NCBI GenBank assembly: GCA_016932615.1
Contig: JAFGCN010000017.1
Coordinates: forward strand, 1 to 49,270
DNA: 49,270 bases
DNA from: Candidatus Aenigmatarchaeota archaeon
GTDB lineage: Archaea; Aenigmatarchaeota; Aenigmatarchaeia; QMZS01
Direction of reading: 5' to 3'
The notes under the pieces: model-generated
The model's input: the letters and a program-made list of their open reading frames with translations, nothing else
What the model was told of the DNA's origin: nothing
Databases searched by the model: none
Program-made: the position numbers and the translations under genes
In this document: piece after piece, positions 915 through 38,482 of the stretch
Numbering within the stretch: position 1 is the stretch's first letter
Layout of the letters: every line of letters begins with the position of its first letter

Positions 915-1310
915 ATGAAGGGTCAGATTTCCGTAGAAATGCTTATCGTTGTGGGCTTAGGCATGCTTATAGTAAGCATATATATACTATATGGATATGC
1001 CTCTATAGATAGCTATAAGAAAGGAAACGACCAGTTTTTGCTAAAAGATTCTCTTGAAAAAATCGCAACTACCGCAAAGTTTGTAGCTCTTCAGGGGGAG
1101 CCGGCAAAACAGACTGTGAATGTGTGTTTTCCAATGTCTCTTGAAACCTGCTCTGTTTACAACACTACTCTTCAGTGTTCCCTCAGGACTGGCGAGTATA
1201 TTTATCAGGATTCTGAAGTGGTTTTGAATGGCACAATGCCCGGTATTTCTGGTTGCTGGAACATTGTTGTGGAAGCCAACCCTGCGTTTGTCAATCTTTC
1301 CATATCATGA
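915..1310 (+). CDS. Small pilin-like protein with a class III (archaeal type IV prepilin) signal peptide
   Basis: N-terminus MKGQISVEMLIVVGLGMLIV has the K-G-Q / hydrophobic stretch pattern cleaved by archaeal prepilin peptidases. First gene of a translationally coupled operon whose stop overlaps the next start. Confidence 0.6.
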   Translation: MKGQISVEMLIVVGLGMLIVSIYILYGYASIDSYKKGNDQFLLKDSLEKIATTAKFVALQGEPAKQTVNVCFPMSLETCSVYNTTLQCSLRTGEYIYQDSEVVLNGTMPGISGCWNIVVEANPAFVNLSIS

Positions 1311-1675
1311 GATGCCAGGCGTCTGTTGAGCTTCTTTTGCTTCTTGGAATTCTTTCTGTGATTTTTGCCATATCTTTTAGCTATTATGTTGGATATGGAA
1401 TATACCAGGCCTCCGTTTCGACAGGCGGTGACTATCGTTCGGTATGCAAGCAGATTGCAGGCGAGATTGACAGTGCCCTTCGCATTGGCCCGGATTATGA
1501 GAGGTCATTTTATCTTCCTTATGGAGACTATAACGCAACACTCCAGAATTATGAGATTGTCGTTAATTATCCTTCTGGCATGGCAGTCTGTTACACATAC
1601 GTAAATATCACTCGGAACCTGACTATTGGAAAAAATACCGTAATATATAATGGAACCGGCTTCTACCTTGAGTAG
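1307..1675 (+). CDS. Small pilin-like protein (start chosen at the ATG overlapping the upstream stop; the track ORF starts at 1253)
   Basis: In-frame ATG at 1307 gives MRCQASVELLLLLGILSVIFAISF, a Q-A-S-V-E-L hydrophobic N-terminus resembling a class III signal peptide. ATGA overlap with the upstream gene. Confidence 0.45.
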   Translation: MRCQASVELLLLLGILSVIFAISFSYYVGYGIYQASVSTGGDYRSVCKQIAGEIDSALRIGPDYERSFYLPYGDYNATLQNYEIVVNYPSGMAVCYTYVNITRNLTIGKNTVIYNGTGFYLE

Positions 1676-2144
1676 AGCATCAAAGGGCCAGATGCTTTCA
1701 TTTGATTTCCTGATTGTGTGCTCGGTTTTCCTTTTCCTCGGAGCGCTTTTAGTCATCCAGGCGGGATATGCCGTAAAGGAGTCGATGGAGATTGAGCGAA
1801 AGGATGTTATTTTGAGGGATGCGAACACCCTGGGGGAAATTTTTTTCAGGGAGGGGTATCCGCGAGACTGGAATGCAGCGAATGTGCAGATACTGGGGCT
1901 TGAATCTTCAGGAAGGATTAGCGATGAAAAGCTGGAAAAATTTGGGCAGCTCGATGTAGGGCGTACAATGATCCTTATGGGGCTTGAAAGTGAATATAAT
2001 ATTACCGTTTTATGCGGCGATGAAGTTGTTAGGTCGTACGGGGCGGCTTATGATGGTGCCTCGTCTATTGTCAAGAAAGAGCGTGTCGTGGTTTTGGAGA
2101 ATGGGACTATTGCAACAGTAAGGGTTCTTGTTTTTGAAAGATGA
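1650..2144 (+). CDS. Small pilin-like protein with a class III signal peptide (alternative TTG start at 1668)
   Basis: SRASKGQMLSFDFLIVCSVFLFLGALLV contains KGQ followed by a hydrophobic helix. The stop overlaps the ATG of the next gene (atga at 2141-2144). Confidence 0.55.
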   Translation: MEPASTLSRASKGQMLSFDFLIVCSVFLFLGALLVIQAGYAVKESMEIERKDVILRDANTLGEIFFREGYPRDWNAANVQILGLESSGRISDEKLEKFGQLDVGRTMILMGLESEYNITVLCGDEVVRSYGAAYDGASSIVKKERVVVLENGTIATVRVLVFER

Positions 2145-5100
2145 AGGGAATTGTGTTTTCGCTGGATTTAGTGCTGGGGATTTCACTTATGGTGCTTCTC
2201 CTGGCATCAAATTACTATCTTTTTTCGCCACAACCCTTTTATGAGGAAACCGGGATGGACCAGAAGTCTGCCCTTGCAAGAGATTTTCTGGAAGCTCTTG
2301 CAACGATGCGCGTCAATGAAACAACACAAAGCCCGACGCTTAACCAGCTCAAGGGAGGAGGGCTGACGGACGATGAGATGGAACTTTCTGTCCTGGACTT
2401 CATTTTGACCTACTGGGCTTACTCGAATCGGGAGGGTGATTACACTAAAAGGGATTATGCGGAAAATATAACAAAGGAACTGATAAACGCCACAAGGTGC
2501 CTGGAGCGATATAATTTTTCCCTTAGCATAGGCAGCGACCCGGTGGTTGGAGACTATGCCGGCACGCAAAATTCTGTTGTAGTTTCCTCCCTGATTGAAA
2601 ATACCTACAGCTCAAACTCAAGGCATGGCTATATGGCAAGGGCTTACCTGAATGGGATAAAAACTGAGCGGTCAAGATATTTGTACTTTGGAGGGTTTGT
2701 GGGTCAGGGAAATATTTCGGCTCTTCTTGAGCTTCCGGAATATGAGTCTGTTACCGGGGCGGAGCTCAATGTTTTTTCCGGGGCAAACCTGTCTCTTTAT
2801 ATAAACAGTAATTTTTCGGGGTATTTTTCCATAAACGAAAGCGCCCCTAATTTTACCGCAAATATTGTTTCCTCCGGCATCAACATCTCCAACTTCCGGG
2901 AAGGTAACAATACCTTAGGGATTTTATTTAATTCCACGGATTACCGCTATTCATATATTGGAGGTGGATTTCTTCGTGTCGATTATACAACAAGTGCCTT
3001 TTACGATGAAAAGCCGGGTCTGGTTGAGGAATACAGATTTCCTGGAATAGAAGGGCTTATCAATGTTTATGATGGGGTGTATCTTCAGGGAAACGTCACC
3101 GAAATACACCTTCACTATTATAATGAAATCCCGGGTTCTGAGGTTTACCTTAATTTTGCCAATGCCACGCTTTACAACAGCAATGCTTCCGGGGAGTCAT
3201 TAATTGAACTCAATGAATCGAACATTTCCGAAGGCCTTGCGGGGGCAGGGCTTAATGTGCAGGGTTTGACAGGAAGCACTGTGCCCTTGAGGGTGGGAAT
3301 AAGGAGCCTTAATTATACCCGGGGTCAGGGTTTTGGAGATGCCGTGCTGATAACTGATGTTTCTGGCAGTATGAGCACGTGCGATGTTTACTCGAACAAT
3401 TCCTGCGACTGCGATGCGCCTCCACCATGCTACCGAAACAGGATAAATGTTGCAAAGGATTCCGATCGGGAGTTTGTCAGTGGAATGCTGGGGCTTAATG
3501 GAAACAGGGTTGGGCTCGTCTCTTTCGATGATGCGCTTTCAGGATCCATATCTCTGACGGGGGACAACCAGACGCTTCAGAGCGAAATAGATACCTATGT
3601 TTCCGGTGGAGGAACTTGCATATGTTGTGGTATTGAAAAAAGTACAGAACTTCTTTCACAAAAATACCTTTCCGTTGACGCTTTGCCGAGCGGCTCGATA
3701 TGGAAGTACACTACAAGCTATCCTCTTTTGGCCCCTCCGGAAATGGACGGAAGAAACTGGACCGACAAAGACTACAATGATTCCGCATGGGCGGAGGGTC
3801 CTGCTGCCCTTGGATTTTTTAACATAAGCTGGGACTACCGAAGGCAGCTTAACCTTTCAAATGCCGCCGGAGCCCTTTACAGCTATCCTGTCAGGATATC
3901 AATTAACCTTTCTGGAGATTACTCTGACGGCAGGGTAAAGCAGTACTGTGGGGATGCAAGGTTTACATATTATAATTCAACCTCCGGCACCGAAACTGAA
4001 CTTCCCTACCTTATTGAAAGCTGCAACCTTTCTGGCAGCGACAATGCCACTTTTTGGGTCAGCGTGCCTTACATGGCTGCAAGCTCAGAAACAACACTTT
4101 ACCTATACTATGGAAACCCCTCAGCATCCCCTGGAAATAACCTTTCAATTTGCCCCGCAGGTGTTCAGGGCGGAAGATGCCTGCTGTTTTATGGCGGCTT
4201 TGAGGATTCTTCTGCCGTCGGACCTACAGGGTTTAATACTTCTGTCTGGTCGGTGGATTATGGAAGCGATGGCGATGAGTGTAGAGTTCACACAGACTCG
4301 GCGGACGTGCGCACTGGCTCTTGGGGTGGGGAGATGGAGGAAGGCGACGAGGGAGAGGTTGCCATAAGCACTCGTGATGGGCTGCTGAACCTTTCGGGCT
4401 GCACTAACTGCCGTCTTGATTTTTGGATTAAGCTCACCACCAACTGGGAAGATGCTGACCGGATATATGTCGATGTTTATGATGGCTCCTGGCATTATGG
4501 AGAGCTGAATTTGAATGGAGAAACTTACGATACCGGAAACTGGCACCAATTTACACTCAATCTTTCTGAGTATGATACCTCTAGCCCAGTCAGGGTGAGG
4601 TTTGATAATGAAGCTAGCGATGATAACGAGGAAGCTCATCTGGATGATGTAATGATATATCACTATGCCCTCTCCGAGCCGTATCTTGGATCGATAGGCA
4701 GCCAGGAAGGGACAACTGCCGTATTAAGTTCGAATGTCTCCACAGTTTTGGCAAATAATGGTGGGGACTACTACTTCAGGAAAAAGTTCTTTATCGAAAG
4801 CACAGAAATGCTAATAAATTCTTCCCTATATGTTTTTTCTGACGATGCCGCTGAAGTTTACCTCAATGGAAACCTTATCGACAATGATACTTCAGAGCAT
4901 AATGCCTCCTACTGGAACCGCGTTATGCCTTTTGATAAATCTCTTTTCCGGCTCGGCTGGAATGTGGTTTCTGCAAGGGTTAAAAATGACGACTCCTCTG
5001 CGGCTCTTTTTGACCTGCGCCTGGAAACTGTTGTCGGAAGAAAAAGGGCAATGCTTGTAATGAGTGATGGCGGTGCTAATTATGAGTGCACACCCTGGCA

Positions 5101-6013
5101 GTACAGCACTTATCAGGGTCCGGTGGATGCAATCCAATACTCCTGCAATGCGAGGGATGACAATATTACGGTATATTCTGTTGCTTTTGGCTCTGATGCA
5201 GACACACTAACACTCAAGAAAATCGCCTGCTGGAACTGCTCTGCAAATAATTGGCTTCCAGGGGAAAATGAGACCAACTGCTCGAAGTACTTCCAGAGCA
5301 ACAATGAGGAGGAGCTTATGGAAATCTATAAGAGGATAGCTGATGATATTGTCAACATGTCTGCGCAGCGCCAGGCGGTTTACGTTCAGGGTGACTGGGG
5401 CTTTAGAAACGTGCTGTACAATGATTCGCGTATGAGCATAAACCTTACAGAGGAATCAGTTTTTGGAGAAGGTGAATTTTTGCTTACCTTTGAGAAAAAC
5501 TGCACAGGCGGATACTGCATTCTTAACAAGTCTGCTGATGTTTCCCTGATTGACGCAAGAGTTACTTCTTATTCGGGTGATTATTGGGCCGACCTGATTC
5601 AGGTTTCAAACTCTTCAGGGCACGTTTCAACGATTTACAACTTGTCAACATATGGGGATTTTGAAGTTCTGGGAGACCCTTACAGCATAAAGCTTCCTTC
5701 GGATTTCTTTTCCGACGGAGCAAACAACATTACGCTTTATCACGGCATCGAGAACGGAAACCCTCAAAACCAGTCGAAGGCATACCGGGTCATATATTCC
5801 ATAAAAGTTCCGGGTTCGGTGGGATATGGTGGGGATGAATTTGTGTTTAATACCTCACAGGAGGCAAGAGACAATGCAACTGAGCGGCTTATACAGCATA
5901 TTGAATCAAAGACCGGAGAGGAAATCAGCAGCTATGAGATAAGCACTTCTCTTACAATAGAAGGCATAAGGGAACTTTCACAAATTGCTCTTGTGAGGTT
6001 TATTATGTGGTAA
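2141..6013 (+). CDS. Large pilin-like-N-terminus surface protein with an interrupted vWA domain. A jelly-roll (LamG/ConA-like) and a PA14-like region lie in the insertion. Candidate pilus-associated adhesin.
   Basis: N-terminus MKGIVFSLDLVLGISLMVLLL is pilin-like. The vWA metal-ion-binding (MIDAS) motif DAVLITDVSGSMS is near nt 3340, followed by NRVGLVSFDD and SGGGTCICCGIEKSTELL. The rest of the vWA (RAMLVMSDGGANYEC...ITVYSVAFGSDADTLTLKKIA) appears only near nt 5040-5235. Dozens of N-x-S/T sequons throughout. Confidence 0.75.
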   Translation: MKGIVFSLDLVLGISLMVLLLASNYYLFSPQPFYEETGMDQKSALARDFLEALATMRVNETTQSPTLNQLKGGGLTDDEMELSVLDFILTYWAYSNREGDYTKRDYAENITKELINATRCLERYNFSLSIGSDPVVGDYAGTQNSVVVSSLIENTYSSNSRHGYMARAYLNGIKTERSRYLYFGGFVGQGNISALLELPEYESVTGAELNVFSGANLSLYINSNFSGYFSINESAPNFTANIVSSGINISNFREGNNTLGILFNSTDYRYSYIGGGFLRVDYTTSAFYDEKPGLVEEYRFPGIEGLINVYDGVYLQGNVTEIHLHYYNEIPGSEVYLNFANATLYNSNASGESLIELNESNISEGLAGAGLNVQGLTGSTVPLRVGIRSLNYTRGQGFGDAVLITDVSGSMSTCDVYSNNSCDCDAPPPCYRNRINVAKDSDREFVSGMLGLNGNRVGLVSFDDALSGSISLTGDNQTLQSEIDTYVSGGGTCICCGIEKSTELLSQKYLSVDALPSGSIWKYTTSYPLLAPPEMDGRNWTDKDYNDSAWAEGPAALGFFNISWDYRRQLNLSNAAGALYSYPVRISINLSGDYSDGRVKQYCGDARFTYYNSTSGTETELPYLIESCNLSGSDNATFWVSVPYMAASSETTLYLYYGNPSASPGNNLSICPAGVQGGRCLLFYGGFEDSSAVGPTGFNTSVWSVDYGSDGDECRVHTDSADVRTGSWGGEMEEGDEGEVAISTRDGLLNLSGCTNCRLDFWIKLTTNWEDADRIYVDVYDGSWHYGELNLNGETYDTGNWHQFTLNLSEYDTSSPVRVRFDNEASDDNEEAHLDDVMIYHYALSEPYLGSIGSQEGTTAVLSSNVSTVLANNGGDYYFRKKFFIESTEMLINSSLYVFSDDAAEVYLNGNLIDNDTSEHNASYWNRVMPFDKSLFRLGWNVVSARVKNDDSSAALFDLRLETVVGRKRAMLVMSDGGANYECTPWQYSTYQGPVDAIQYSCNARDDNITVYSVAFGSDADTLTLKKIACWNCSANNWLPGENETNCSKYFQSNNEEELMEIYKRIADDIVNMSAQRQAVYVQGDWGFRNVLYNDSRMSINLTEESVFGEGEFLLTFEKNCTGGYCILNKSADVSLIDARVTSYSGDYWADLIQVSNSSGHVSTIYNLSTYGDFEVLGDPYSIKLPSDFFSDGANNITLYHGIENGNPQNQSKAYRVIYSIKVPGSVGYGGDEFVFNTSQEARDNATERLIQHIESKTGEEISSYEISTSLTIEGIRELSQIALVRFIMW

Positions 6014-6014
6014 T

Positions 6015-7262
6015 ATGAATGGCTTTCTTTATTCCGGGCTTATGGTTCTGGTCCTGTTTGCTCTTTTTTCAATAATGCTTGTGCAAAGGGAAAGAGTAAG
6101 CGAAGAAAGAGAAACATTTTCACTTAACGATAGGCTGATGGATATGGATGCTTCTTATGACAGCATAGAGCGCAGCATACATACCCTTTGTGATGTTTCG
6201 CTCAGGCGCGCCATAATATCATCCGAGAACTCGGTTTTGATTGATGGGGTATCATTTTTTTCTGGCGGGCAAAAAGCTCCGGACGCAATAAAGCAGCTGA
6301 TGTGGAATGGAACACTGCCAGCTACCGGCGAGGAAGTAACATTTATGGAAAATAACACTCTTGAGCACAATCTGGAGCTCCTTGAGGAATATTATTCTCG
6401 TAACCCAAAGGGATACAATGTCTCAATAGACTTTGGCTATGAGAGTGCAAAGGTCGGGCTTTATGATGCCTTTAATGTCTTCATAAACTCTACCGTTGAG
6501 GTGAATATTTCGAAAGAAGGTGTGGCGAACCTTTCTAGAAGATTTATTGTTCTGGAGAAAGTTTCAATCTTGGGGTTTGAAGACCCGCTTTACCTGGAAA
6601 ACCTTACCGGGGGAACGCTTTCCCGGGTTTTCAACAAAAGCCAGCATACTGATAACTTTACCCGAAGGGTGCCTCTGATTGTTTTATCCGGAAATGGGAA
6701 CTGTTATGGTGAGCTTACGGACGATGCAGGCGCTTCTGAAAAGGAACATAAAATATTCTTCAATGATACTGTTTATCCCGGCCTGGATTCATTTTGTGGG
6801 GTGGTTTACGAGTCAGGAAGCGAGCCTGCTACAAGCTACCTGAGAGTGGATTCGCTGGCGGGGCTTTCATCTCTGTCAGGCCAAAGCTTTCTTATTTTTG
6901 GAAGCGCTGAATCATGGAGTGAGGAAGATGGGCTTTTGGACGTTTCAAATCTCATTGTTCATGTCCGGGAAGGAAGCTATATAAACTCAAGCAGCGCCCC
7001 CAGCTTTTTCGACGCGCTGGAGGGAACATTTGAATGCACTTATTGCGCCGAGTATGGCCCTGTGGGTCTTGAGACCGTACTTGACAAAAACATCCTTTCC
7101 GCACCGGAACTTCACATCAATGTAAACACAACCGCCTCCAACACGCTTCATGAATACCTCCAGGGGCAGGCGGGGGAAAAGTTTGGGCTGAACGAATCCT
7201 CAGTTGACCCGACATTTTATGAATTCCGGCTGGATGGCTCCTCCGGAAGTTATCTTGGTTAG
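6015..7262 (+). CDS. Secreted or membrane-anchored glycoprotein with a hydrophobic, pilin-like N-terminus; last gene of the operon
   Basis: MNGFLYSGLMVLVLFALFSIMLV is a hydrophobic N-terminus. Starts 2 nt after the upstream stop. Many N-x-S/T sequons. No recognisable catalytic motifs. Confidence 0.5.
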   Translation: MNGFLYSGLMVLVLFALFSIMLVQRERVSEERETFSLNDRLMDMDASYDSIERSIHTLCDVSLRRAIISSENSVLIDGVSFFSGGQKAPDAIKQLMWNGTLPATGEEVTFMENNTLEHNLELLEEYYSRNPKGYNVSIDFGYESAKVGLYDAFNVFINSTVEVNISKEGVANLSRRFIVLEKVSILGFEDPLYLENLTGGTLSRVFNKSQHTDNFTRRVPLIVLSGNGNCYGELTDDAGASEKEHKIFFNDTVYPGLDSFCGVVYESGSEPATSYLRVDSLAGLSSLSGQSFLIFGSAESWSEEDGLLDVSNLIVHVREGSYINSSSAPSFFDALEGTFECTYCAEYGPVGLETVLDKNILSAPELHINVNTTASNTLHEYLQGQAGEKFGLNESSVDPTFYEFRLDGSSGSYLG

Positions 7263-7285
7263 TTGAGAGGTTTATTTTTTCAATA

Positions 7286-7335
7286 CCCCAGGGCTTGCCC
7301 TGGTTGGGAGGAGGTCATTTTGTTTGTGAAATTTG
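7286..7335. terminator. Putative bidirectional terminator region between convergent genes
   Basis: Inverted repeat CCAGGGC-tt-GCCCTGG at 7288-7303 followed by a T-rich tract (tcattttgtttg). Lies between the convergent ends of 6015-7262 (+) and 7409-7837 (-). Confidence 0.3.
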
Positions 7336-7408
7336 GCGGCCTGTAGAATATAGTTTCTTTGGAGCGGCTAAAAGAAAAAAGGTTAAACTAAAAAGCAAAA
7401 AGAATGAC

Positions 7409-7837
7409 TTACTGGAAGTATCCGGATTGAAGTGTCTGCGTTCTTGTCTGTGAAAGTGAGCTTCCCGCTTTTGTGTAGGTCAGGCTGGCACCAACATCAT
7501 TTGCTCCGTTATTAGGTACATAGAGTATAAATACCTGGTTTGCATTGACCGTTGCTGGGCTTGGAAGAACACATCCGCTGGGAAGGCATGCTGTCAAATT
7601 TATTCCTTCCCCCCTGTTCTTAACTTCAAGCGCGAGGTGGCTGCCGTTGTACGAGTGTGCATTGTATGCAAAGTCGCTGAAGCATGGTGTGCAAGGTGGG
7701 GTAGTTGTGCTTGAGCCGGAGCTGAATACTCCCATGGAGTAAAGGGCAGCTACTGCAATTACAACTATCGCTATTGCTATGCCGTAAGTCATTAAGTATT
7801 CTAAGGACACCTGTCCTTTGAATCTTCGTGCATTCAT
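7409..7837 (-). CDS. Archaeal type IV pilin (class III signal peptide); likely major pilin
   Basis: MNARRFKGQVSLEYLMTYGIAIAIVVIAVAALY is the canonical positively charged residues, KGQ, then VSLEYL hydrophobic helix. The C-terminal domain is S/T-rich with N-x-S/T sequons. Confidence 0.8.
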   Translation of the reverse strand: MNARRFKGQVSLEYLMTYGIAIAIVVIAVAALYSMGVFSSGSSTTTPPCTPCFSDFAYNAHSYNGSHLALEVKNRGEGINLTACLPSGCVLPSPATVNANQVFILYVPNNGANDVGASLTYTKAGSSLSQTRTQTLQSGYFQ

Positions 7838-7882
7838 AACTATTGTAAGATGTTATATATAAGTTTAGCAGTATGCCACTGG

Positions 7883-8041
7883 CTACTCTTTTTCAATTGC
7901 CCACTTGCCTTTTTTCCTGCCCATAAGAGAGTACTTTCTGCACTTGGATGAGCAAAAGTGCATATTTTGTCCTTTATTGTTGACATACAGTATGCCTATT
8001 CCCTTCTTCACAGTTTTGCCGCAAAAAAAGCAGTTTACCAT
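7883..8041 (-). CDS. rpl24e: Ribosomal protein L24e (52 aa; below the ORF-track size cutoff)
   Basis: Manual translation gives MVNCFFCGKTVKKGIGILYVNNKGQNMHFCSSKCRKYSLMGRKKGKWAIEKE, the C4 zinc-ribbon signature (CFFCG...FCSSKC) of L24e. It starts 3 nt after the S28e stop. Confidence 0.85.
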   Translation of the reverse strand: MVNCFFCGKTVKKGIGILYVNNKGQNMHFCSSKCRKYSLMGRKKGKWAIEKE

Positions 8042-8043
8042 AT

Positions 8044-8232
8044 TTATACCCCCACAACCTCCATATCGGTCTCCTTAAGGTAAATTACATCTCCCTCCTT
8101 GACTCTACCGATTACCGCCCGGTTAAGCACCTTATTTTGCTTTGTTCCTTCGATTATACGGCACTTTACAAGCGAAATCCCTTTTGGGCCTTTCCTTTTG
8201 AGAACCTTGATTACTTCGGCTGCGTCTGCCAT
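8044..8232 (-). CDS. rps28e: Ribosomal protein S28e (start taken at the internal MADAAEV; the track ORF extends to 8253)
   Basis: MADAAEVIKVLKRKGPKGISLVKCRIIEGTKQNKVLNRAVIGRVKEGDVIYLKETDMEV matches the S28e pattern (AEVIEI...G.VREGDIL.L.E). It has the conserved S28e-L24e adjacency. An AT-rich TATA-like element (TTTAAAT) lies about 21-27 nt upstream of the ATG. Confidence 0.8.
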   Translation of the reverse strand: MADAAEVIKVLKRKGPKGISLVKCRIIEGTKQNKVLNRAVIGRVKEGDVIYLKETDMEVVGV

Positions 8233-8254
8233 ATTTAAGATACCGATTAACATT

Positions 8255-11129: not shown

Positions 11130-11183
11130 TTCCAATTATCCAGAATTATGCTTATATATAATAATCTATCTAATACTATAGTT

Positions 11184-12593
11184 ATGGCAAGCCTTTTGCA
11201 GCACTTCGAAAGAGCTTTTAGTGCTTACCGAAAGAACCTGATTCCGTATACATTCTCGGCGCTTCTTGTTTGCTTTGCTGCCGTTTTTGTCATGTTCCTT
11301 GGAATGCTTGTTTTCGTGCTTAACTCGGAGTCTGTCTTTTACTCGGAGGAGTTTATGAACCAGGCGGAGCTTGACCCTGCAGTAGTGTTGCTCGCATTGA
11401 TGACACCGGGAAACATAGCGATACTCTTTACCTTCTCTTTTTTGGCTCTCGTTGCATTCCTGTATATGTCTGCCGGAGTTTATGGAGTTTGTCTTGAGGG
11501 GCTCAGGGGAAGAGTCTCTGTAAGGGCATTTTTCAGTTCCGTTGCAAGGCGTGGCGGGTCGTACCTAATCGCTTCACTCATCCTTTTAGGTTTCCTGATG
11601 GGATTTATCGTGCTTGCAATGTTTGTTCCAATATTTCTTTTTGTAAGCATGCCTGTTGCTGCGGCAGTTCAGTCTTATCTTGTCTGGTTTTTGCTCATTT
11701 ATTTCCTGGGCTTCCTTCTTACGCCTTTCTTCTTCTCTGTCCTTCCAGCCATAGTTTCCGGAAGGGGGATAATAAATGCTTTCAGGGAGAGTATGGCTGT
11801 AGGCAGGGATAATTACCTTGAGCTTTTGCTTCTTGAGGTGCTTCTCTTTACAGGTTTTTTTGTTTCTGCGCTCATTCCATACATTTGGGCGGGAATTTTG
11901 TTTTTCATTTCCGTGCCTATTGCTACATTTGTCAACTGCTCCTTTTACCTTGACAGGGTAAGCCCAGCTAAGATGGGTGCGCACAAAGAATCCCCAAAGC
12001 AACCTTCCGGGCAGAGAAGAATTCCTGCAAGGGTTATGCCTGCCAGGGCTGCGGCTGAAAACCAAAGGCCTGCAAAGGAAAGCGAGTTTATAGAGGAGCC
12101 GCCCGTTGACTTTACAGTTTCAGAGTCAAAGAAAAAGCTTGTTTCGGAGCTTAGAGAAAGGGCTATTTCGGAAGACCGGAAAAAACAAGGGCAAAAGAAA
12201 AAGCAGGTGTCCGCTGCAACCGCCAGAAAGAAGAAAAAAGATACTCTCAAGACAAAATCGGCAAAGAAGCCAAAGTTGAAGAAGCCGATTGTGAAAAAGA
12301 AGCCTGCAGAAAAAAAGCAAAAAAAGAAAGTGCCTGTGAAAGAAGCCCGCGCGAAAAAGGCAGGCCCAGCAACTAAGGAAACTGCTGCCGAGCCCGCAGC
12401 AATTGCCCCCATTCCAAGCGCACCTTCAAAAGCTCCTTTAAAAAAGAAGCCCGTGAAGAAAGTGAAAACTCCTGCCGCAAGGCATTCAATTGTGCAGAGG
12501 GCAATTGCAAAGCACACGACTGCAAAGAACCGGGACATTGAGCTTTTCCAGCAGCTGGAGTTGCCAAAAAATAAGCCAAAGAAGGGCAAGTGA
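11184..12593 (+). CDS. Polytopic membrane protein with a C-terminal histone-H1-like lysine-rich tail of about 140 aa (alternative start 11148)
   Basis: About 6 predicted TM helices (e.g. IPYTFSALLVCFAAVFVMFLGMLVFVL). Conserved SGRGIINAFRES segment. The tail reads KKQGQKKKQVSAATARKKKKDTLKTKSAKKPKLKKPIVKKKPAEKKQKKKVPVKEARAKKAGPATKE. Paralogous to the next gene. Confidence 0.6.
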   Translation: MASLLQHFERAFSAYRKNLIPYTFSALLVCFAAVFVMFLGMLVFVLNSESVFYSEEFMNQAELDPAVVLLALMTPGNIAILFTFSFLALVAFLYMSAGVYGVCLEGLRGRVSVRAFFSSVARRGGSYLIASLILLGFLMGFIVLAMFVPIFLFVSMPVAAAVQSYLVWFLLIYFLGFLLTPFFFSVLPAIVSGRGIINAFRESMAVGRDNYLELLLLEVLLFTGFFVSALIPYIWAGILFFISVPIATFVNCSFYLDRVSPAKMGAHKESPKQPSGQRRIPARVMPARAAAENQRPAKESEFIEEPPVDFTVSESKKKLVSELRERAISEDRKKQGQKKKQVSAATARKKKKDTLKTKSAKKPKLKKPIVKKKPAEKKQKKKVPVKEARAKKAGPATKETAAEPAAIAPIPSAPSKAPLKKKPVKKVKTPAARHSIVQRAIAKHTTAKNRDIELFQQLELPKNKPKKGK

Positions 12594-12630
12594 GTGCTAG
12601 AGGGCTATTAATTATATAATATAGTCAATT

Positions 12631-13512
12631 ATGGTGACATTTACAGAACACCTCAGACGAAGTTTCGGAGCTTATATTCGCAATTTCCGGGTAATAGCGC
12701 TTGCGCTCATCATTGCAGCAATTCCGTCGGCAATGCTGGTGGGGCTCGGATTTTACGCAGTGTCTGACTTCTCTTTTGGCGAAGCGGGGCGACTTGCAAA
12801 GGAGACCTACTTTGCTGACAGAGTTTCTATTTGGGAGGACTCACCTTACCCTCCTGAACTGTTTTCCCCCTGGTTTTTTGTGTTCGAGGGCCTGGCGGCC
12901 ATCGTGACATCATATATGCTTGCGGGAACCTATGGGGTATGCCTTTCTGCCATAAAAGGGCGGCCATCTCTTTCTGATTTTTTCAGGTCTCTTCGGGAAA
13001 GTGGGGTTACCCTTGTTTTGTCAAAAATCGCACTTCTTGCAGGGCTTACTGTTTCGCTTGTGCTTTTGTTTCTTACAGGCCTTGTTTTCGCAGCGGTTGC
13101 TAACGCAATTTTCTCGGTTTCTGAAGGGCTGCTTGGCATGCTTTTCGTTCTGTTTTTTATCCTGATAATCGCTCCTATTTTGCCTCTTGTGCTGCTCGTG
13201 TCCCCTTCAGTTGTTTCTGGCAGAAGCGTAGTTGAGGCGTTCAGGGAGAGTTACGCCCTGGGCATTAAGCATTATTGGGGGATTGTTGGGCTTATCCTGG
13301 TGGCTATGGTTCTGATGGTTGTAAGCGGAATTCTGGGTGTTTTAAATGCCCTGGCGGCACTTCTTTTTTCCGGATTTTTTGTTTCACCCCTGATTGCGCT
13401 GCTGCTGTCCTCATACTACCTTGATAAATCAGGCAAAAAACAGGCAAGGGGCTCTGAGATGACGCCACGGAATGCGGCAAAGAAGAAAGTGACACAATCG
13501 AGGAGGAAGTGA
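12631..13512 (+). CDS. Polytopic membrane protein, a paralogue of the preceding gene but without the lysine-rich tail
   Basis: Shares block order with 11184-12593: FGAYIRNFRVIALALII vs FSAYRKNLIPYTFSALLV; VSGRSVVEAFRESYALG vs VSGRGIINAFRESMAVG; YGVCLSAIKGRPSLSDFF vs YGVCLEGLRGRVSVRAFF. Confidence 0.6.
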   Translation: MVTFTEHLRRSFGAYIRNFRVIALALIIAAIPSAMLVGLGFYAVSDFSFGEAGRLAKETYFADRVSIWEDSPYPPELFSPWFFVFEGLAAIVTSYMLAGTYGVCLSAIKGRPSLSDFFRSLRESGVTLVLSKIALLAGLTVSLVLLFLTGLVFAAVANAIFSVSEGLLGMLFVLFFILIIAPILPLVLLVSPSVVSGRSVVEAFRESYALGIKHYWGIVGLILVAMVLMVVSGILGVLNALAALLFSGFFVSPLIALLLSSYYLDKSGKKQARGSEMTPRNAAKKKVTQSRRK

Positions 13513-14806: not shown

Positions 14807-16603
14807 GTGTATTCAGTTATGCCAAAAGTTCTTCTGGGAAAGAACATTATCGACAAGCCCGTCAATTGGGAGATTGAAAAGGAAAAAAACCCGCATCTGC
14901 TCGTTTTGGGGACTTCCGGGTGCGGAAAGACGGAAACCCTGAAGGCGATAATACATGACCTTAACGCCGCAAAGGTGCCTTCACTTATAATTGATTTTCA
15001 CAGCGAGTTTTCCGGGGTCGGGGATAAAGTCCTGAATATGAGGGACTCAGGAATGAACCCTCTTGAGTTTTCAGAGCATGAAACTCCTGAGTCGGTAGTT
15101 TATGAGGTTTCAGGAATCATAAAGAAGATATTCGGGCTTGGCGAGATACAGCAGTCAATAATCAGGCAGGCGCTGAAAAACAGCTACCTTGAAATGGGAA
15201 TTGATGTTCGAAGGGAAGGCCCCGCGGAAAGCTATCCTACCTTTTCAGATGTAAAACAGCATATATACCAGCTTGAAACTCCATCAACAAAGAGAAACAT
15301 AGAGTCTCTCATGAGTAGAATTGACCCTCTTTTTGAGCTTGAGCTTTTCCAGAGCAGCAACCAGATTGCTTTTTCAGACCTCCTGAACGGGACGACTGTA
15401 GTTGACCTGAAGAACTTTCCGACCGAAGAGATAAAGTCGGTTATCGCGGAGTTTTTCCTTGCAAAGCTATCTTATTATATCTACTCGCTTGAAAAGTCAA
15501 AGCAGATGAAGCTTTATGTTGTTGTAGATGAGGCGCACCGCCTTATGTATGAGGGCTCTCCTCTGGACCGTTTTTTGAGGGAGTCCAGAAAGTATGGCGT
15601 TGGAGTGATTCTTGCTTCGCAGCGGCCCACAGACTTTAACGAAACAGTTCTCGCCAATGCGGGCGTGTTATTAAGCTTTCAGTGCACACTGGAGAAGGAT
15701 GCAGTTTTTGTGGGAAAGCAACTGGGCCTTGACTCAAAGAAGGTAAGAAACTTGATTGAGCCAGGAATTGGTTATGTCAAGTTCTCGCGGTCCGATAAGG
15801 CCGAGCGGGTCCATATAACCCGGCTTCAGGACAGGATGACCGAAGAGGAAAAAGCGAAAATGAAGGAGCAGGCGAAATATTCCGGCAAAAAAACCGAGAA
15901 GCGCGAGCCACAAAAAGTGGTTCCCCGGGTTAAGCCAGAAGACCTCTTAATTGAAAACGATTCTCTGGGAAAAGATGGTCCTGATGAGGAAGAGGTTACT
16001 GCTGAGAGAAAGGAGCCGGTTTATGACGAGCGGGAGGAAGAGCCGCAGGAAGATGCCCTGGGCGCAGAGGAAGCCTTGGCGGAGAATGAAGATGAATCCG
16101 AAGACAAGGGGCGGGAGGAGACTTCAGATGATGAAGCGCCGAAAAAAGAAAGAAAAAGGCATCCTGATGACAGTGGCGGCGAAAAAACAAGGGAGGAGCT
16201 CGAAGAAGAATACCGAAAGAAGGAAATCGAGGAGGAACTTGAGCGCAAAAAAAGCGAAGCGGTGGAATCAGATGAACGCCGGGAAAAGCATGTACACCAC
16301 GAGACGCACAGGCAATCAGAATCCGGGGGCGATTTTTCACTTTCAAAGCTATTCTTTTTCGACAACGAATCGATCGGAATCCGCCCAGTTGTAAGGGCTG
16401 CCTTTATCACGCTCATGTTTATTGCGGGTTTTTGGCTTCTGATTATGCTTAACATGAACTGCTGGCTGTTCTTCTGCCTTGCTGTTTTGTGGACTCCCCT
16501 TACTGCTGAGCTTTTCAGGGTGGAGGGACACTCGAAGATAATTTTTGACATTTTCCGGCTTATTTTTACCCTGGTGCTGGTTTACCTTTTTGTAGTCTTT
16601 TAG
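14807..16603 (+). CDS. HerA/DUF87-like P-loop ATPase with an acidic low-complexity linker and a C-terminal double-TM anchor
   Basis: Walker A LVLGTSGCGKTE, Walker B LYVVVDEAHRL and the arginine-finger region ILASQRPTDF match the HerA/VirB4/DUF87 fold. Residues ~390-510 are a D/E-rich linker (EEEVTAERKEPVYDEREEEPQED...). The last ~80 aa have two hydrophobic helices (FITLMFIAGFWLLIML; IFDIFRLIFTLVLVYLFVVF). Confidence 0.75.
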   Translation: MYSVMPKVLLGKNIIDKPVNWEIEKEKNPHLLVLGTSGCGKTETLKAIIHDLNAAKVPSLIIDFHSEFSGVGDKVLNMRDSGMNPLEFSEHETPESVVYEVSGIIKKIFGLGEIQQSIIRQALKNSYLEMGIDVRREGPAESYPTFSDVKQHIYQLETPSTKRNIESLMSRIDPLFELELFQSSNQIAFSDLLNGTTVVDLKNFPTEEIKSVIAEFFLAKLSYYIYSLEKSKQMKLYVVVDEAHRLMYEGSPLDRFLRESRKYGVGVILASQRPTDFNETVLANAGVLLSFQCTLEKDAVFVGKQLGLDSKKVRNLIEPGIGYVKFSRSDKAERVHITRLQDRMTEEEKAKMKEQAKYSGKKTEKREPQKVVPRVKPEDLLIENDSLGKDGPDEEEVTAERKEPVYDEREEEPQEDALGAEEALAENEDESEDKGREETSDDEAPKKERKRHPDDSGGEKTREELEEEYRKKEIEEELERKKSEAVESDERREKHVHHETHRQSESGGDFSLSKLFFFDNESIGIRPVVRAAFITLMFIAGFWLLIMLNMNCWLFFCLAVLWTPLTAELFRVEGHSKIIFDIFRLIFTLVLVYLFVVF

Positions 16604-16663
16604 CTTTTTGAAATACAGGCACCAAAGTTTATAAAAATCAAAACTCTCAAAAAAATCAAAAGT

Positions 16664-17017
16664 TTATGCAAGCACTCTTTCCATGTCTTTTGCCTTCAAA
16701 AACTGCAAGCGGTTGTCTATTTCCCTCGACAGGAGCTTAAAGAAGATTATCTGGTCGTCTGCGAATTTTCTCTGCTTTCCAGCAGACTCGCTTTTGGCAA
16801 GCTCTTCTCCGACTGCGCCAAAGAAGGTGGCCCATGCGTCGCATACATCTCTTGTCGCTCTCAGTTTTTTGGGGTCTCGTTCAAGCTCAGCTTTCTTAAT
16901 CTCCTTGAGGAGGAAACTTACTGCCTTGTTATAATCATTTTCGGTTTTCTTGGCAAATTCCCTGATGTTCTTGACTGGCTTTTTGGTGGTTTTCCCGGAA
17001 GTTTTTTTCTGTTTCAT
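16664..17017 (-). CDS. Small basic alpha-helical hypothetical protein
   Basis: 117-aa ORF immediately downstream of 17021-17794 on the same strand. K-rich N-terminus. No motif recognised. Confidence 0.35.
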   Translation of the reverse strand: MKQKKTSGKTTKKPVKNIREFAKKTENDYNKAVSFLLKEIKKAELERDPKKLRATRDVCDAWATFFGAVGEELAKSESAGKQRKFADDQIIFFKLLSREIDNRLQFLKAKDMERVLA

Positions 17018-17020
17018 ATT

Positions 17021-17794
17021 TTAAATTCGGGAGTAAGCCCCCTGAACTGCTTTGCCGCTGCTGCTAACTCTGCCTTTCAGCTTCCATGCCCCTATGCCTA
17101 CTGCTCCAGCGCCAAGCACTGCTGCTATGGCCATCGGGTCGACAGAGCCGGAGTCGGTTGTCAGAAGGTCCTGCGCTTTTTCAATCGCTTGCTGTACGAT
17201 TCCCTGGTCTGATGTACTGCCTACTGCGGGTTCGGTTGCAACAGGGCTGGAAACATCCGCTAATGAGGGGGTGGTTAGTGCAGGATTGTAGCCTGAAGAT
17301 CCGGGAGTGTTGTCCCTGATAAGGCCAAGGTAGCTGGATTGTGTGGAGCTAAGCTCGCCTGCGTAGGATATAGCTCCTGCATCTTTTATTACCGCCTGTC
17401 CTAGCTCTGAGCCCGCTTCTGGCAAGTCCAGCCAAGAGGCATCTGGAATCTGCCCTGCATCATTAAGTGTTCTAAGGGCTTCTTCGGCAGTTTGGGTTTT
17501 GGTCGCATGCTCATAGAGCTTTGATGCTTCGCTTAGGTTGCCTTTGGTGGCATGCACATAGAAGTTCATGAGCAGGGAGTCACTACTCAGGTAGTCTGCC
17601 CCTTCAATTGGAGAGCCTGCACCGCTGGTAGCTGTGCTGGCTAGTCCGCTGGAATAAGCTGTGTCTGTTGTCATTGAAGAGCTGGCTCCTGTGCTGCTGT
17701 ATGTTGCGTTAACTGTTTCGCCAATGTTCGCAGTAATGGAATCAGGCGTAAGAGCATCTGATCCGCTTAAACTTTCGTGTAATCCTCGTCTCAT
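17021..17794 (-). CDS. Ser/Thr/Ala-rich low-complexity protein with a C-terminal hydrophobic anchor and basic tail
   Basis: S/T-rich tracts (ATYSSTGASSSMTTDTAYSSGLASTATSGAGS). The C-terminus MAIAAVLGAGAVGIGAWKLKGR resembles a C-terminal sorting/anchor signal. No N-terminal signal peptide is obvious from this start. Confidence 0.4.
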   Translation of the reverse strand: MRRGLHESLSGSDALTPDSITANIGETVNATYSSTGASSSMTTDTAYSSGLASTATSGAGSPIEGADYLSSDSLLMNFYVHATKGNLSEASKLYEHATKTQTAEEALRTLNDAGQIPDASWLDLPEAGSELGQAVIKDAGAISYAGELSSTQSSYLGLIRDNTPGSSGYNPALTTPSLADVSSPVATEPAVGSTSDQGIVQQAIEKAQDLLTTDSGSVDPMAIAAVLGAGAVGIGAWKLKGRVSSSGKAVQGAYSRI

Positions 17795-17842
17795 ATAATA
17801 GTATATTGCTTGAGAAGATATATAGTAGTTCCACTTTGGAGT

Positions 17843-18955
17843 TTACTCCAGAAGCCCTTTATTTTCCTCAATTATCTCCCTGAAGGCGTTTACTACTCTG
17901 TCGATTTCAGCGTCGGTCAGGAGGTAAGTTGAGAGTTTCATAGACTTTGTCCTTCCGGGCTTTATTCCGCCGATGCCCCGGTCTTTTAATGCCGAGTGGA
18001 GGAAAAAGCCCCTTTTCTTGTGCTTTTCGGAAATCCTGAAGAATGGATTTGTTTCAAAATTCAGAAGGTCGTGATTGTGCGGCTTTTCGCCGAGCTGAAC
18101 CATCCCAAGCTTTTCCATTTCCCTTGAAAACCTTCTTGCCTTTTCAATCTCCTCATCCCATCGTTTTATTCTCTCTTTAACAGCAGGAAAGGAGGCAATA
18201 AGTGTCATCAGCGTTGCGCCCCTTGAAGAGCAGCCAAGAATCTCTACTTCCTTGTTTTTGGCAAGCGCGCTTATACGAAACAGCTTTTCAGACCATTCCT
18301 TTGTGGTTCCCAGGACCCCGATGGGCCCGCTTGCAGCCATGGACTTGTGGCCTGAGCCAATTATGAAGTCAGCGCCTAATTCAGTCATGGATAGCGGCAT
18401 CCTTCCTACAGAGTACGCGCCGTTGATTGCAAAGGGCACTTTGAAGTCCGAGCAGATTTTTGCAAGCTTTGCGGCGTCAGGCAGGTTTCCATAAGACCCG
18501 TCAGGGTAAGTGAGGACAACAAGCGCGGGCTTTTCCTCCTGCAAGAACTTTACGTAATTTTCGACGTCGATTTTGTGTTCCGGGCTTCCCGAGGAGTCGA
18601 CCATTTTTACGTCAAGCCCCGAAAGCTCGGCTGAAACGAGCGTCGTGTAGTGGGCATTTCCGTCCACGAGCACGTATTCCCCGTTGTCTTTCAGGGTGTG
18701 CATAATGGCGAACATCGCTTCTCTTGCCCCGTTCGTTGTCCTTGCAACGTCGCAGCCCAAAAATTCCGGGAGGTCTTTGTAGATGAACTCCTGAATGTTT
18801 GGCTTTTGCACCATATCGAGCCGCCCGCCGCAGAAGTCGCATACCGAGTAGCCGTCCCCCCATTCGACCAGGGCCTGTTTTGCTTCAGGCGTCAGAATTC
18901 CTCCTCTCTGGATAGGGTTAAGGTTGATTTCAGGGCGTTCGCGTGCAAGGTCCAT
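17843..18955 (-). CDS. pscS: O-phosphoseryl-tRNA:Cys-tRNA synthase (SepCysS), PLP-dependent
   Basis: NLNPIQRGGILT near the N-terminus. CDFC at residues 39-42, Arg79 and His-Tyr at residues 102-103 correspond to the catalytic residues Cys39/Cys42, Arg79 and His103/Tyr104 described for Archaeoglobus SepCysS. GSGHKS provides the PLP-binding lysine. 370 aa. Confidence 0.7.
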   Translation of the reverse strand: MDLARERPEINLNPIQRGGILTPEAKQALVEWGDGYSVCDFCGGRLDMVQKPNIQEFIYKDLPEFLGCDVARTTNGAREAMFAIMHTLKDNGEYVLVDGNAHYTTLVSAELSGLDVKMVDSSGSPEHKIDVENYVKFLQEEKPALVVLTYPDGSYGNLPDAAKLAKICSDFKVPFAINGAYSVGRMPLSMTELGADFIIGSGHKSMAASGPIGVLGTTKEWSEKLFRISALAKNKEVEILGCSSRGATLMTLIASFPAVKERIKRWDEEIEKARRFSREMEKLGMVQLGEKPHNHDLLNFETNPFFRISEKHKKRGFFLHSALKDRGIGGIKPGRTKSMKLSTYLLTDAEIDRVVNAFREIIEENKGLLE

Positions 18956-18990
18956 AAAATTCTAAGGAAAGTATATTAGTAGCTGCCAGA

Positions 18991-21580: not shown

Positions 21581-22191
21581 TTATGCCTTATCTGGAGAGC
21601 ATTCTCTTGGGGGTTTCTCTAGCTGCAATTCCCGGCCCGGTATTTTTTGAGGTAATGCGGAGAACTTTAGCCCGGGGCTTTGGGAAGACATCCCTGCTGA
21701 TTCTTGGCGTCTTCTTGGCTGATTTTTTGCTTCTGGTCTTGACCTTTTATGGCCTAAGCCAGTTTCTTGCAATTGGCTGGCTAAGTGTAGCAATGTATCT
21801 AGCAGGAGGGCTTCTCCTCATATTCATAGGGGTTAGCTCGATGCGAATAAGTGAAAAAGAAATCAAACAGGCGTCGAAGAAGAAAGCTTCGGAAACCAAC
21901 TCTGCCTTTATGGGTTTTGGCCTTGCTTTTACAAGCCCACTGTCGATTGCCGTTTGGATTTCCCTGGGTGGATCCTACCTTGCCCAGTACGCAGTGCGCT
22001 CAGTTGCGCTTACCCATATGCTTATGCTTGCCTTTGGAGTCATGGTTTTCTTTTTTGGCCTTGCTTTTGCGGTTCACACGTTCAGGGGCAAGATTGAGTC
22101 CAAATACATTTTGGCAACTTCAAAACTGTTTGGCCTGGTTCTGATATGCTATGGGGTTTATGCTTTGTCCGGCTTGGCAAATTTTGCCTGA
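21577..22191 (+). CDS. LysE/RhtB-family amino-acid exporter
   Basis: Six TM helices. AIPGPVFFEVM is the LysE-type PGP motif. 204 aa. Overlaps the thrS stop by 4 nt. Confidence 0.65.
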   Translation: MIMPYLESILLGVSLAAIPGPVFFEVMRRTLARGFGKTSLLILGVFLADFLLLVLTFYGLSQFLAIGWLSVAMYLAGGLLLIFIGVSSMRISEKEIKQASKKKASETNSAFMGFGLAFTSPLSIAVWISLGGSYLAQYAVRSVALTHMLMLAFGVMVFFFGLAFAVHTFRGKIESKYILATSKLFGLVLICYGVYALSGLANFA

Positions 22192-22265
22192 CTGCAGGCA
22201 TTTTATTTTTTGGCAGAGCTTCTTTTCAGCCCAAGTGCTGCAAAAAGCGCGAGAAGATAGCAGGA

Positions 22266-22667: not shown

Positions 22668-22696
22668 TATTCTCTAATAGGGCGGCTACTGATGAT

Positions 22697-24664: not shown

Positions 24665-24739
24665 AGTTTAAGATAAATGCACTCAGGCACATACTAAGAG
24701 ATATGCTTCCTATAAATACCTCCTCTCCCAATACTAATA

Positions 24740-26721: not shown

Positions 26722-26742
26722 AATATATAAAAGAATCCAAAA

Positions 26743-38471: not shown

Positions 38472-38482
38472 GGTGACTTAAG

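Follow-up and report, generated by a model that had tools for sequence, protein, structure and literature searches.

The stretch of DNA analyzed here (the window) is a whole contig of 49,270 bp from a metagenome-assembled genome (MAG) of Candidatus Aenigmarchaeota, a lineage of the DPANN archaea, which are tiny and for the most part dependent on hosts. Five of its genes, at positions 915 to 7262 on the plus strand, probably code for the minor pilins and the adhesin of an Epd/Tad-like archaeal type IV pilus, and the convergent gene at 7409 to 7837 on the minus strand the major pilin of the same system, with the genes for the ATPase and for two half-size FlaJ/TadC-like platform proteins most probably lying just beyond the left contig end. 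We call the five genes g1 to g5 and the convergent gene g6. All six open reading frames (ORFs) were found where a first-pass annotation of this DNA had placed them, and the set has the layout which that annotation had proposed, namely, minor pilins accompanied by a large adhesin with a vWA (von Willebrand factor type A) domain. The evidence lies in the gene order, the conservation of N-terminal motifs, the linkage to pilus machinery genes in related loci, an intact metal ion-dependent adhesion site (MIDAS) in the vWA domain of g4, and homology between g3 and g4.

Relatives of g4 were collected in a scan of one genome per species, which gave 341 stretches, and the best 80 loci were kept for comparison. 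These 80 loci are labeled Aenigmat-, Nanohal-, Alti-, Micr-, or Woesearchaeota, Nanoarchaeota/Nanobdellota, or "uncultured archaeon," with a few "uncultured Methanosarcinales," and all named g4 homologues come from DPANN lineages or unclassified archaea. The g4 product is identical to NCBI MBN2095265.1 from a Candidatus Aenigmarchaeota MAG, publicly named "DUF2341 domain-containing protein," and the public labels of its family are only "VWA/DUF2341 domain-containing" or "hypothetical." Alignment profiles of g3 and g5, compared with a set of 5.8 billion proteins, returned only 19 to 21 matches, unnamed or labeled Aenigmarchaeota, and therefore no link to Euryarchaeota could be drawn.

Gene organization and prepilin-like N termini

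The five genes of the set overlap or abut one another. ATGA overlaps join g1 (915 to 1310, 131 aa) to g2 (1307 to 1675, 122 aa) at 1307 to 1310 and g3 (1650 to 2144, 164 aa) to g4 (2141 to 6013, 1290 aa) at 2141 to 2144; g2 and g3 overlap by 26 nt, given a g3 start at 1650; and a single spacer base separates g4 from g5 (6015 to 7262, 415 aa) in the sequence TAA T ATG. The public call of g3 begins at an ATG at 1692 (150 aa), 42 nt inside the 1650 start, and thus loses the KGQ cleavage motif that the orthologues show to belong to the protein. The convergent intergenic region between g5 and g6 (7263 to 7408) contains oligo-T runs on both strands which, as read from the sequence, probably serve the operon and g6 as archaeal terminators.

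Each of the six products contains exactly one hydrophobic 19-mer, situated at the extreme N terminus, and no C-terminal anchor. With ↓ marking the predicted cleavage site, the N termini read MKG↓QISVEMLIV in g1, MRC↓QASVELLLL in g2, SKG↓QMLSFDFLIV (preceded by further residues) in g3, MKG↓IVFSLDLVLG in g4, MNG↓FLYSGLMVL in g5, and RRFKG↓QVSLEYLMTYG (likewise preceded by further residues) in g6. The class III (prepilin)-type N termini claimed for the five products and the convergent gene are therefore present in all of them and are conserved among their orthologues. A Lys/Arg-Gly leader, as also claimed, is found in g1, g3, g4, and g6 (MKG, SKG, MKG, and RRFKG), but g2 carries Cys at −1, and in g5 the Gly is not preceded by a basic residue. 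Both departures set the window apart from nearly all orthologues: in g2 (1307 to 1315), the predicted −1 residue is Cys here versus Ala, Gly, or Ser in 40 of 41 orthologues, and in g5 (6015 to 6023), the residue before the Gly is Asn here versus Lys or Arg in 40 of 42.

The conservation was read from logos of ~40 positional orthologues per gene (g1, g2, g3, and g5), from a listing of g4 N termini across loci, and from an alignment of g6. The resulting consensus sequences are (K/R)(A/G/S)↓Q-x-(S/A)-x-E-(Y/F)-L for g1 and g2, (K/R)(G/A)↓Q-x-F-S-x-D-F for g3, (K/R)(G/A)↓x-x-F-(S/T)-x-D-A for g4, (K/R)G↓x-x-(Y/F)-(T/S) for g5, and (K/R)(G/A)↓Q-x-x-x-E-(Y/F)-L-x-T-Y-G for g6. Gln at +1 and Glu at +5 each occur in 33 of 37 g1 orthologues and, respectively, in 38 and 39 of 41 g2 orthologues, while g3 keeps Gln at +1 and Asp at +6 (each in 39 of 42); g5 alone in the set has no acidic residue conserved at +5 or +6. 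Since Q+1 and E+5 or D+6 are held position specifically across so many orthologues of each gene, the N-terminal pattern is not a product of chance. Q+1 and E+5, which g1, g2, and g6 have, are known, after a leader with a small final residue, as the mark of those Epd pilins that EppA processes in Methanococcus maripaludis (PMC3875500). Elsewhere in the window, among ORFs of at least 45 aa, a basic-small-hydrophobic pattern was met only in the Sec-type signal peptide of a 3207-aa protein, in one membrane protein, and in one shadow ORF. Further, g4, g2, and g5 carry 3.95, 3.3, and 3.1 N-glycosylation sequons per 100 aa, respectively, versus 0 to 0.76 in cytoplasmic proteins of the window; this 5- to 10-fold density fits what would be expected of exported, N-glycosylated archaeal proteins.

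The small subunits are related to one another and, through their orthologues, to known families. Pfam and NCBIfam were scanned with orthologue sets in addition to the six window proteins. For the small proteins of the window itself, these scans, which follow a search proposed in the first-pass annotation, give only subthreshold pilin matches: g1 and g6 score 11.1 and 12.0 bits against Class_IIIsignal (PF04021; cutoff, 23.7), and g3, a DUF7287-related protein, scores 15.3 bits against DUF7287 (E 0.031; cutoff, 27), covering the full profile length. The orthologue sets, by contrast, do reach these families, with 28 of 67 g1/g2 orthologues matching PF04021 (E ≤ 0.05) and 13 of 67 matching DUF7266 (best E 4.8e-8), 11 of 42 g3 orthologues matching DUF7287 (best E likewise 4.8e-8), and 4 of 23 g6 orthologues matching PF04021 at E ≤ 0.05. 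A literature search on DUF7287 returned nothing. According to hhalign, g1 and g2 are paralogues over their full length (98.7% over 110 columns), and they have their N-terminal segment in common with g6 (96%).

The 142-aa product of g6 is the candidate major pilin: its Q, E, L, T, Y, and G are invariant in 23 orthologues, its gene adjoins platform genes in many other DPANN loci, and its profile weakly matches subunits from multichain filament entries of the PDB (8fk7, E 0.0017; 8q30, E 0.0087; and 8fj5, Pilin_N, E 0.045). A TTATATATA box lies ~17 to 25 nt 5' of the g6 ATG as a separate upstream element of this gene. Ribosomal protein genes S28e and L24e (7838 to 8253, −) occupy the same strand, with g6 45 nt downstream of them.

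No relative was recognized for the pilin-like product of g5: its orthologue set gave no family or significant match in Pfam or among PDB sequences, and Foldseek with its AlphaFold2 model returned nothing significant. In that model, which is poor (predicted local distance difference test [pLDDT] score, 57.7), only residues 1 to 185 are confident, with an N-terminal helix at 2 to 77 and a four-stranded sheet at 135 to 184 (pLDDT ~50 to 90, mostly 70 to 90); the C-terminal half was not modeled.

Domain architecture of the large vWA protein

The 1290-aa product of g4, which contains 51 N-glycosylation sequons, looks like a modular pilin composed of a pilin-like module, a beta-sandwich, and a vWA domain split by a beta-rich insert of ~450 aa with DUF2341. 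This description draws on the ORF, on family scans, and on an AlphaFold2 model of residues 1 to 1200 (mean pLDDT, 76.3). Residues 1 to 150 (2141 to 2590, +) comprise the prepilin-like N terminus, with Asp at +6, and a helical module; the model has a hydrophobic helix at residues 2 to 28 and the module at 35 to 123. The g3 family aligns with the N termini of g4 proteins in hhalign (probability, 96.8%; E 2.4e-10; 132 columns), and g4 therefore looks like a g3-like module fused to adhesin modules. A conserved beta-sandwich follows at residues 175 to 358 (2663 to 3214, +), with the motifs FGGFVGQGN and YIGGGF, invariant glycines at positions 184, 185, 188, 190, 275, and 276, and block-mean pLDDT scores of 75 to 94 (mostly >80). 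Foldseek matched the g4 model to arrays of carbohydrate-binding-like sandwiches, among them those of reelin, Vip3, Cry protoxins, SGBP-B, and BcsB.

The first-pass annotation had claimed a metal-binding vWA domain in this product, and the site is indeed intact. The N-terminal vWA part (residues 399 to 515; 3335 to 3685, +) holds D406-x-S408-x-S410 (nt 3356 to 3370) and T492 (nt 3614 to 3616), and the C-terminal part (residues 967 to 1075; 5039 to 5365, +), recognized by Pfam and in the model, supplies D976 (nt 5066 to 5068); these five MIDAS residues are invariant or nearly so in 68 homologues. The proposed search for vWA families gave VWA_2 above its cutoff at residues 402 to 507 (36.3 bits; cutoff, 27) and the C-terminal part of a VWA match at 966 to 1030. 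Between the two parts lies the insert (residues 516 to 966; 3686 to 5038, +), modeled from residue 520 onward as three beta-rich regions that include DUF2341 (residues 603 to 667; nt 3947 to 4141; E 5.6e-10; 40 bits versus a cutoff of 23.4), with a jelly-roll-like domain at ~877 to 966. Short forms of the protein (~850 to 900 aa; P0020, P0022, P0048, and P0111) align with gaps across the bulk of residues ~507 to 988, from which it follows that their vWA domain is uninterrupted and that the insert is a variable addition. The remaining residues, 1076 to 1290 (5366 to 6010, +), form a conserved C-terminal beta domain, modeled from ~1097 to residue 1200, with the motifs TSYSGDYW and LGDP and invariant Y1144, S1145, W1149, G1178, and D1179.

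Related loci and the contig break

The neighborhoods of the related loci were compared by mapping the window proteins, together with ATPase and platform proteins of related loci, onto all fetched loci. Most of the 80 related DPANN loci show g1-g2-g3-g4-g5 in this order, and the next genes are often an ATPase gene of the T2SSE family, two platform genes of the T2SSF family, and a g6-like pilin gene. Of 81 loci, 38 have a T2SSE gene, usually 1.3 to 4.4 kb from g4, and of the 29 loci flanked on each side by at least 8 kb, 22 have T2SSE and/or T2SSF within 10 kb. In NCBIfam, an ATPase from a related locus matches FlaI (E 3e-86), TadA (E 8e-59), and BasE (E 7e-39); of the two platform genes, one matches the N-terminal half of FlaJ and the other the C-terminal half.

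In the window itself, Pfam scans of the main ORFs outside the set matched no T2SSE, T2SSF, or prepilin peptidase family, in agreement with the earlier statement that the window has no assembly ATPase or platform gene. Its left end falls within a gene for a CBS-domain protein with a Lys-rich N-terminal half (2 to 895, −; Pfam CBS E 5.4e-9), which is 38% identical to the CBS protein of locus L014 in an alignment that stops at residue 286 of 300, so that ~14 codons are missing before the stop. In seven related Aenigmatarchaeota loci (L002, L007, L009, L011, L014, L018, and L087), the CBS gene is directly followed by the ATPase gene and, wherever the contig is long enough, by two platform genes. 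In the first six of these, T2SSF-T2SSF-T2SSE-CBS and g1-g2-g3-g4 lie on opposite strands, as far as the contigs reach, and in L087, the closest relative (g4 60% identical), the gene that overlaps the end of CBS encodes an ATPase N terminus 56% identical to that of L014 over 118 residues. The absence of machinery from the window is therefore best explained by a contig break beside the expected ATPase gene, and the set in the window is probably the core group of minor pilins from a complete pilus locus rather than an orphan cassette.

Locus L089 shows a second arrangement, with g1 to g5 followed by CBS, an intein-containing T2SSE gene, and two T2SSF genes. Its ATPase gene (15937 to 18957) has 1006 codons, as has that of L034 (14591 to 17611), likewise a related Aenigmatarchaeota locus, and the L089 copy contains an intein with a LAGLIDADG endonuclease domain. 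As the neighbor of the ATPase in two locus arrangements, the Lys-rich CBS protein may be a dedicated regulator. Several related Aenigmatarchaeota loci have an additional gene between g4 and g5, for a product of ~260 to 280 aa with a Sec-type signal peptide (L007, 13014 to 13799; L008, 4868 to 5647; L009, 7208 to 7996; and L018, 12652 to 13494), which the window lacks.

Proposed assembly, alternatives, and known systems

We propose that all six products would enter the membrane through their single N-terminal helix and that a prepilin peptidase encoded elsewhere would cut the six precursors after the (K/R)(G/A/S) motif. The products of g1, g2, g3, and g5 and the g3-like module of g4 would then be joined by their helices in a priming complex that sits on the FlaJ/TadC-like platform, and the ATPase would polymerize g6 beneath it, thereby placing the complex at the pilus tip. 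There, the MIDAS vWA domain and the several carbohydrate-binding-like beta-sandwich domains of g4 might bind a ligand on a host cell or surface. Because it is the only subunit without a conserved acidic helix residue, g5 may form the outermost cap, by analogy with GspK/PilX; a capping role has likewise been proposed for CpaL (PMC11870444).

Several points weigh against this proposal. Class III cleavage of the products is predicted from their sequences, and the N termini of g2, with its Cys at −1, and g5, with no basic residue, are atypical; a strict FlaFind-type pattern would presumably accept only g1, g3, and g6. For the window's own g1 and g6, Class_IIIsignal stays below threshold (E 0.2 to 0.4), and the models of g4 and g5 have helical N-terminal modules with no significant match to the canonical pilin fold. 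Machinery genes are missing within 10 kb in 7 of the 29 loci with full flanks. No prepilin peptidase candidate was found in the window, and a screen of multispan membrane ORFs within 10 kb in related loci for the GxGD motif yielded none either; across all fetched loci, the GxGD expression picked out only platform proteins, a K+ channel, and a single further ORF that is unrelated, and these were rejected as prepilin peptidases. Archaeal prepilin peptidase genes often lie away from pilin loci. Finally, the tip location and the capping by g5 are proposed purely by analogy with bacteria.

Of the alternatives, the first-pass annotation suggested an accessory adhesin cassette, standing apart from any pilus machine and assembled in trans. 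The lack of ATPase, platform, and peptidase genes in the window and the seven loci without nearby machinery would suit such a cassette, and trans exchange of pilin sets between ATPase/TadC modules has been proposed for archaea (PMC4858521). As the contig ends inside the CBS gene, which the ATPase gene directly adjoins in the seven Aenigmatarchaeota loci, L087 included, and linkage to machinery is the rule across DPANN, we regard this alternative as decidedly improbable. Another possibility is that the genes encode a short pseudopilus or a bindosome-like surface assembly, with g4 as an adhesin or receptor on the cell body rather than at the tip of a long pilus. The match of the related ATPase to the bindosome ATPase BasE points in that direction, archaeal class III signal peptides also occur on nonfilament surface proteins such as those of the Sulfolobus bindosome (PMC4858521), and the locus is known here from its gene sequences. 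This we consider unlikely, given that the locus includes g6, a dedicated and highly conserved small pilin with an invariant, major-pilin-like N terminus and weak matches to archaeal filament subunits, and that four small subunits with one large one mirror the priming complexes of true pili.

Alternatively, g4 could be a basal membrane anchor or assembly factor, as was originally proposed for TadG, rather than an adhesin. Its intact, invariant MIDAS, several carbohydrate-binding-like sandwiches, very high sequon density, and lineage-variable vWA inserts fit an exposed, ligand-binding, diversifying protein instead, and CpaL/TadG is now modeled at the tip (PMC11870444); we deem an anchor very improbable. 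The last alternative would have the N termini be plain signal anchors or Sec signal peptides of unrelated surface proteins that cluster by chance, as might be imagined from the fact that no small protein of the window exceeds a pilin-family threshold in Pfam or NCBIfam and that g5 has no detectable family. To be weighed against it are Q+1 and E+5 or D+6 conserved right after (K/R)(G/A/S) in each gene's orthologues, the PF04021 matches of the g1/g2 orthologues, the hhalign relationships that join g1, g2, g3, the g4 N terminus, and g6, the tight linkage to T2SSE and T2SSF, and the lack of AXA-type Sec cleavage sites after the helices; the 3207-aa protein of the same window, with a true Sec-type signal peptide, looks different. 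We give a chance cluster scarcely any credence and retain the reading as a probable type IV pilus locus.

Among described systems, that locus shares most features with two kinds of pili. The Epd-type (clade 1) pili of M. maripaludis and Thermococci (EpdA to EpdE, EppA, and EpdJ/K/L) are alike in the small residue followed by Q+1 and E+5 (PMC3875500) and in having several minor pilins per operon and, as in the loci related to the window, two TadC-like platform genes (PMC4858521). According to Makarova, Koonin, and Albers in 2016, Epd-type pili have at least five minor pilins and two large DUF2341 proteins, proposed to be PilY-like tip adhesins (PMC4858521); g4 likewise contains DUF2341. When transposon mutants of M. 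maripaludis were screened for defects in transformation, a DUF2341 gene in the epd region was hit repeatedly (PMC10133366). The Epd likeness suggested here, drawn from the signature, gene content, and published descriptions, has its limits: the large protein of the window is itself pilin-like and built on a MIDAS vWA domain, with DUF2341 only as a lineage-specific insert; the major pilin has ~140 rather than ~70 aa; and, unlike in Epd loci, no EppA- or FleN/MinD-like genes were seen in the listed neighborhoods.

Tad/Flp pili (TadE/TadF plus TadG, or CpaJ/CpaK plus CpaL in Caulobacter) resemble the set in combining small minor pilins with a large pilin-like vWA protein, and, like them, the related loci here have a TadA-like ATPase and a split platform of the TadB/TadC kind. 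In architecture, g4 comes closest to CpaL, which is the TadG orthologue of Caulobacter: in TadG/CpaL, a pilin-like module is followed by a MIDAS vWA domain (DxSxS, T, and D) split by a beta-rich insert, as in g4 (399 to 515 and 967 to 1075), and CpaL has been modeled at the pilus tip with CpaJ and CpaK (PMC11870444). Tad pili differ in that the archaeal envelope calls for no secretin and g4 has an extra beta-sandwich and a C-terminal domain. TadE and other Tad families were not matched by g4 in Pfam scans, and TadE was matched by 1 of 67 g1/g2 orthologues (E 0.033). Common descent of g4 and TadG is offered as a hypothesis.

The comparison that the first-pass annotation drew with bacterial PilY1 and its minor pilins fits less well. 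In type IVa pili, PilY1 and FimU-PilVWX likewise pair a large vWA-containing protein with four or five minor pilins in a priming and tip complex (PMC11870444), but PilY1 is not a pilin and ends in a beta-propeller, whereas g4 has a prepilin-like N terminus and, in its model, a small beta domain up to residue 1200. Membership of g4 in PilY1/PilC was rejected, given its pilin-like nature and a Pfam scan that gave no such family at E ≤ 1; TadG/CpaL and Streptococcus sanguinis PilB resemble it instead. The latter, a type IV pilin made of two modules, one of them vWA (PDB 7b7p; PMC8179133), is only 15% identical to g4, which is three times larger and has a helical pilin module of the g3 (DUF7287-like) type. 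Pfam and NCBIfam scans of the window proteins gave no bacterial N-methylation motif family. The vWA fold is all that g4 has in common with the tip adhesins known from sortase and type V pili (Mfa5, SpaC, RrgA, GBS104, and PitA), whose assembly, by sortase or by lipoprotein strand exchange, is unrelated.

The first-pass annotation had held that such a set in an archaeon is not a textbook arrangement. Minor pilins with DUF2341 tip adhesins had in fact already been proposed (PMC4858521), and conserved type IV pilus loci in DPANN had been reported by Makarova et al. in 2019 (PMC6393860) and Hamm et al. in 2024 (PMC11291902). The "cluster-2" loci of these two reports (PMC11291902, PMC6393860) come from the same lineages (Nanohalo-, Woese-, Nano-, and Aenigmarchaeota) and contain the same CpaF/TadC genes, and "dark-matter" proteins encoded in them were predicted to be pilins; the emphasis there is on coiled-coil proteins (Hamm et al., 2024) or unspecified pilins, unlike the vWA giant described here. 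In the main text and searchable supplements of Hamm et al. (PMC11291902), vWA does not come up, nor does a pilin-like giant of this kind or the five-gene module, and the review of archaeal pili mentions vWA only as a cytoplasmic regulator (ArnB) and TadG only for bacteria (PMC4858521). Our search of the DPANN and archaeal-pilus literature turned up no description of a vWA pilin like g4. A DPANN-wide vWA modular pilin with four partner subunits is thus apparently new to the literature, with its principle established elsewhere. Current ideas are not overturned, because the same architecture has been proposed for Epd pili and shown or modeled in bacteria.

The window contains further features of note. 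A second, different vWA giant, of 3207 aa with 129 Cys residues, is encoded at 28848 to 38471 (+); it has a VWA domain at residues 352 to 519, DUF4215 repeats, and a SpaA-like domain, and a gene for a 296-aa secreted protein follows it (the pair spans 28848 to 39373, +). Because of its Sec-type signal peptide, we rejected it as a member of the pilus system. A low-GC stretch at 22000 to 25000 (0.39 to 0.42 versus ~0.47 elsewhere) with a Schlafen-like helicase gene (22697 to 24664) and a free-standing LAGLIDADG endonuclease-like ORF (26161 to 26784, −) are possibly mobile or defense-related DNA. In addition, two adjacent paralogous DUF7847 membrane proteins are encoded at 11148 to 13512 (+), the first with a long Lys/Pro/Ala-rich C-terminal tail.

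Cultivated DPANN archaea need physical contact with host cells (PMC11291902, PMC12710345), and the molecules that mediate this contact are mostly unidentified. The module described here is a concrete and widely conserved candidate for DPANN attachment to hosts or surfaces; g4 offers a predicted metal-dependent binding site that can be tested together with defined partner subunits, and orthologues are encoded in MAGs classified as Candidatus Nanohalobium, a genus of which a member has been cultivated. It is also an archaeal case of the "modular pilin" principle, with a possible evolutionary tie to TadG/CpaL of Tad pili. More tentatively, and as a possibility that we hold to be doubtful at present, the g4 family may supply the chief adhesin with which DPANN archaea recognize hosts or surfaces, displayed at the tip of a conserved type IV pilus with vWA inserts that tune binding by lineage, and may be the archaeal counterpart by descent of TadG/CpaL. 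If this descent were true, a vWA-bearing tip pilin would already have been part of the Epd-like archaeal system that presumably gave rise to Tad pili.

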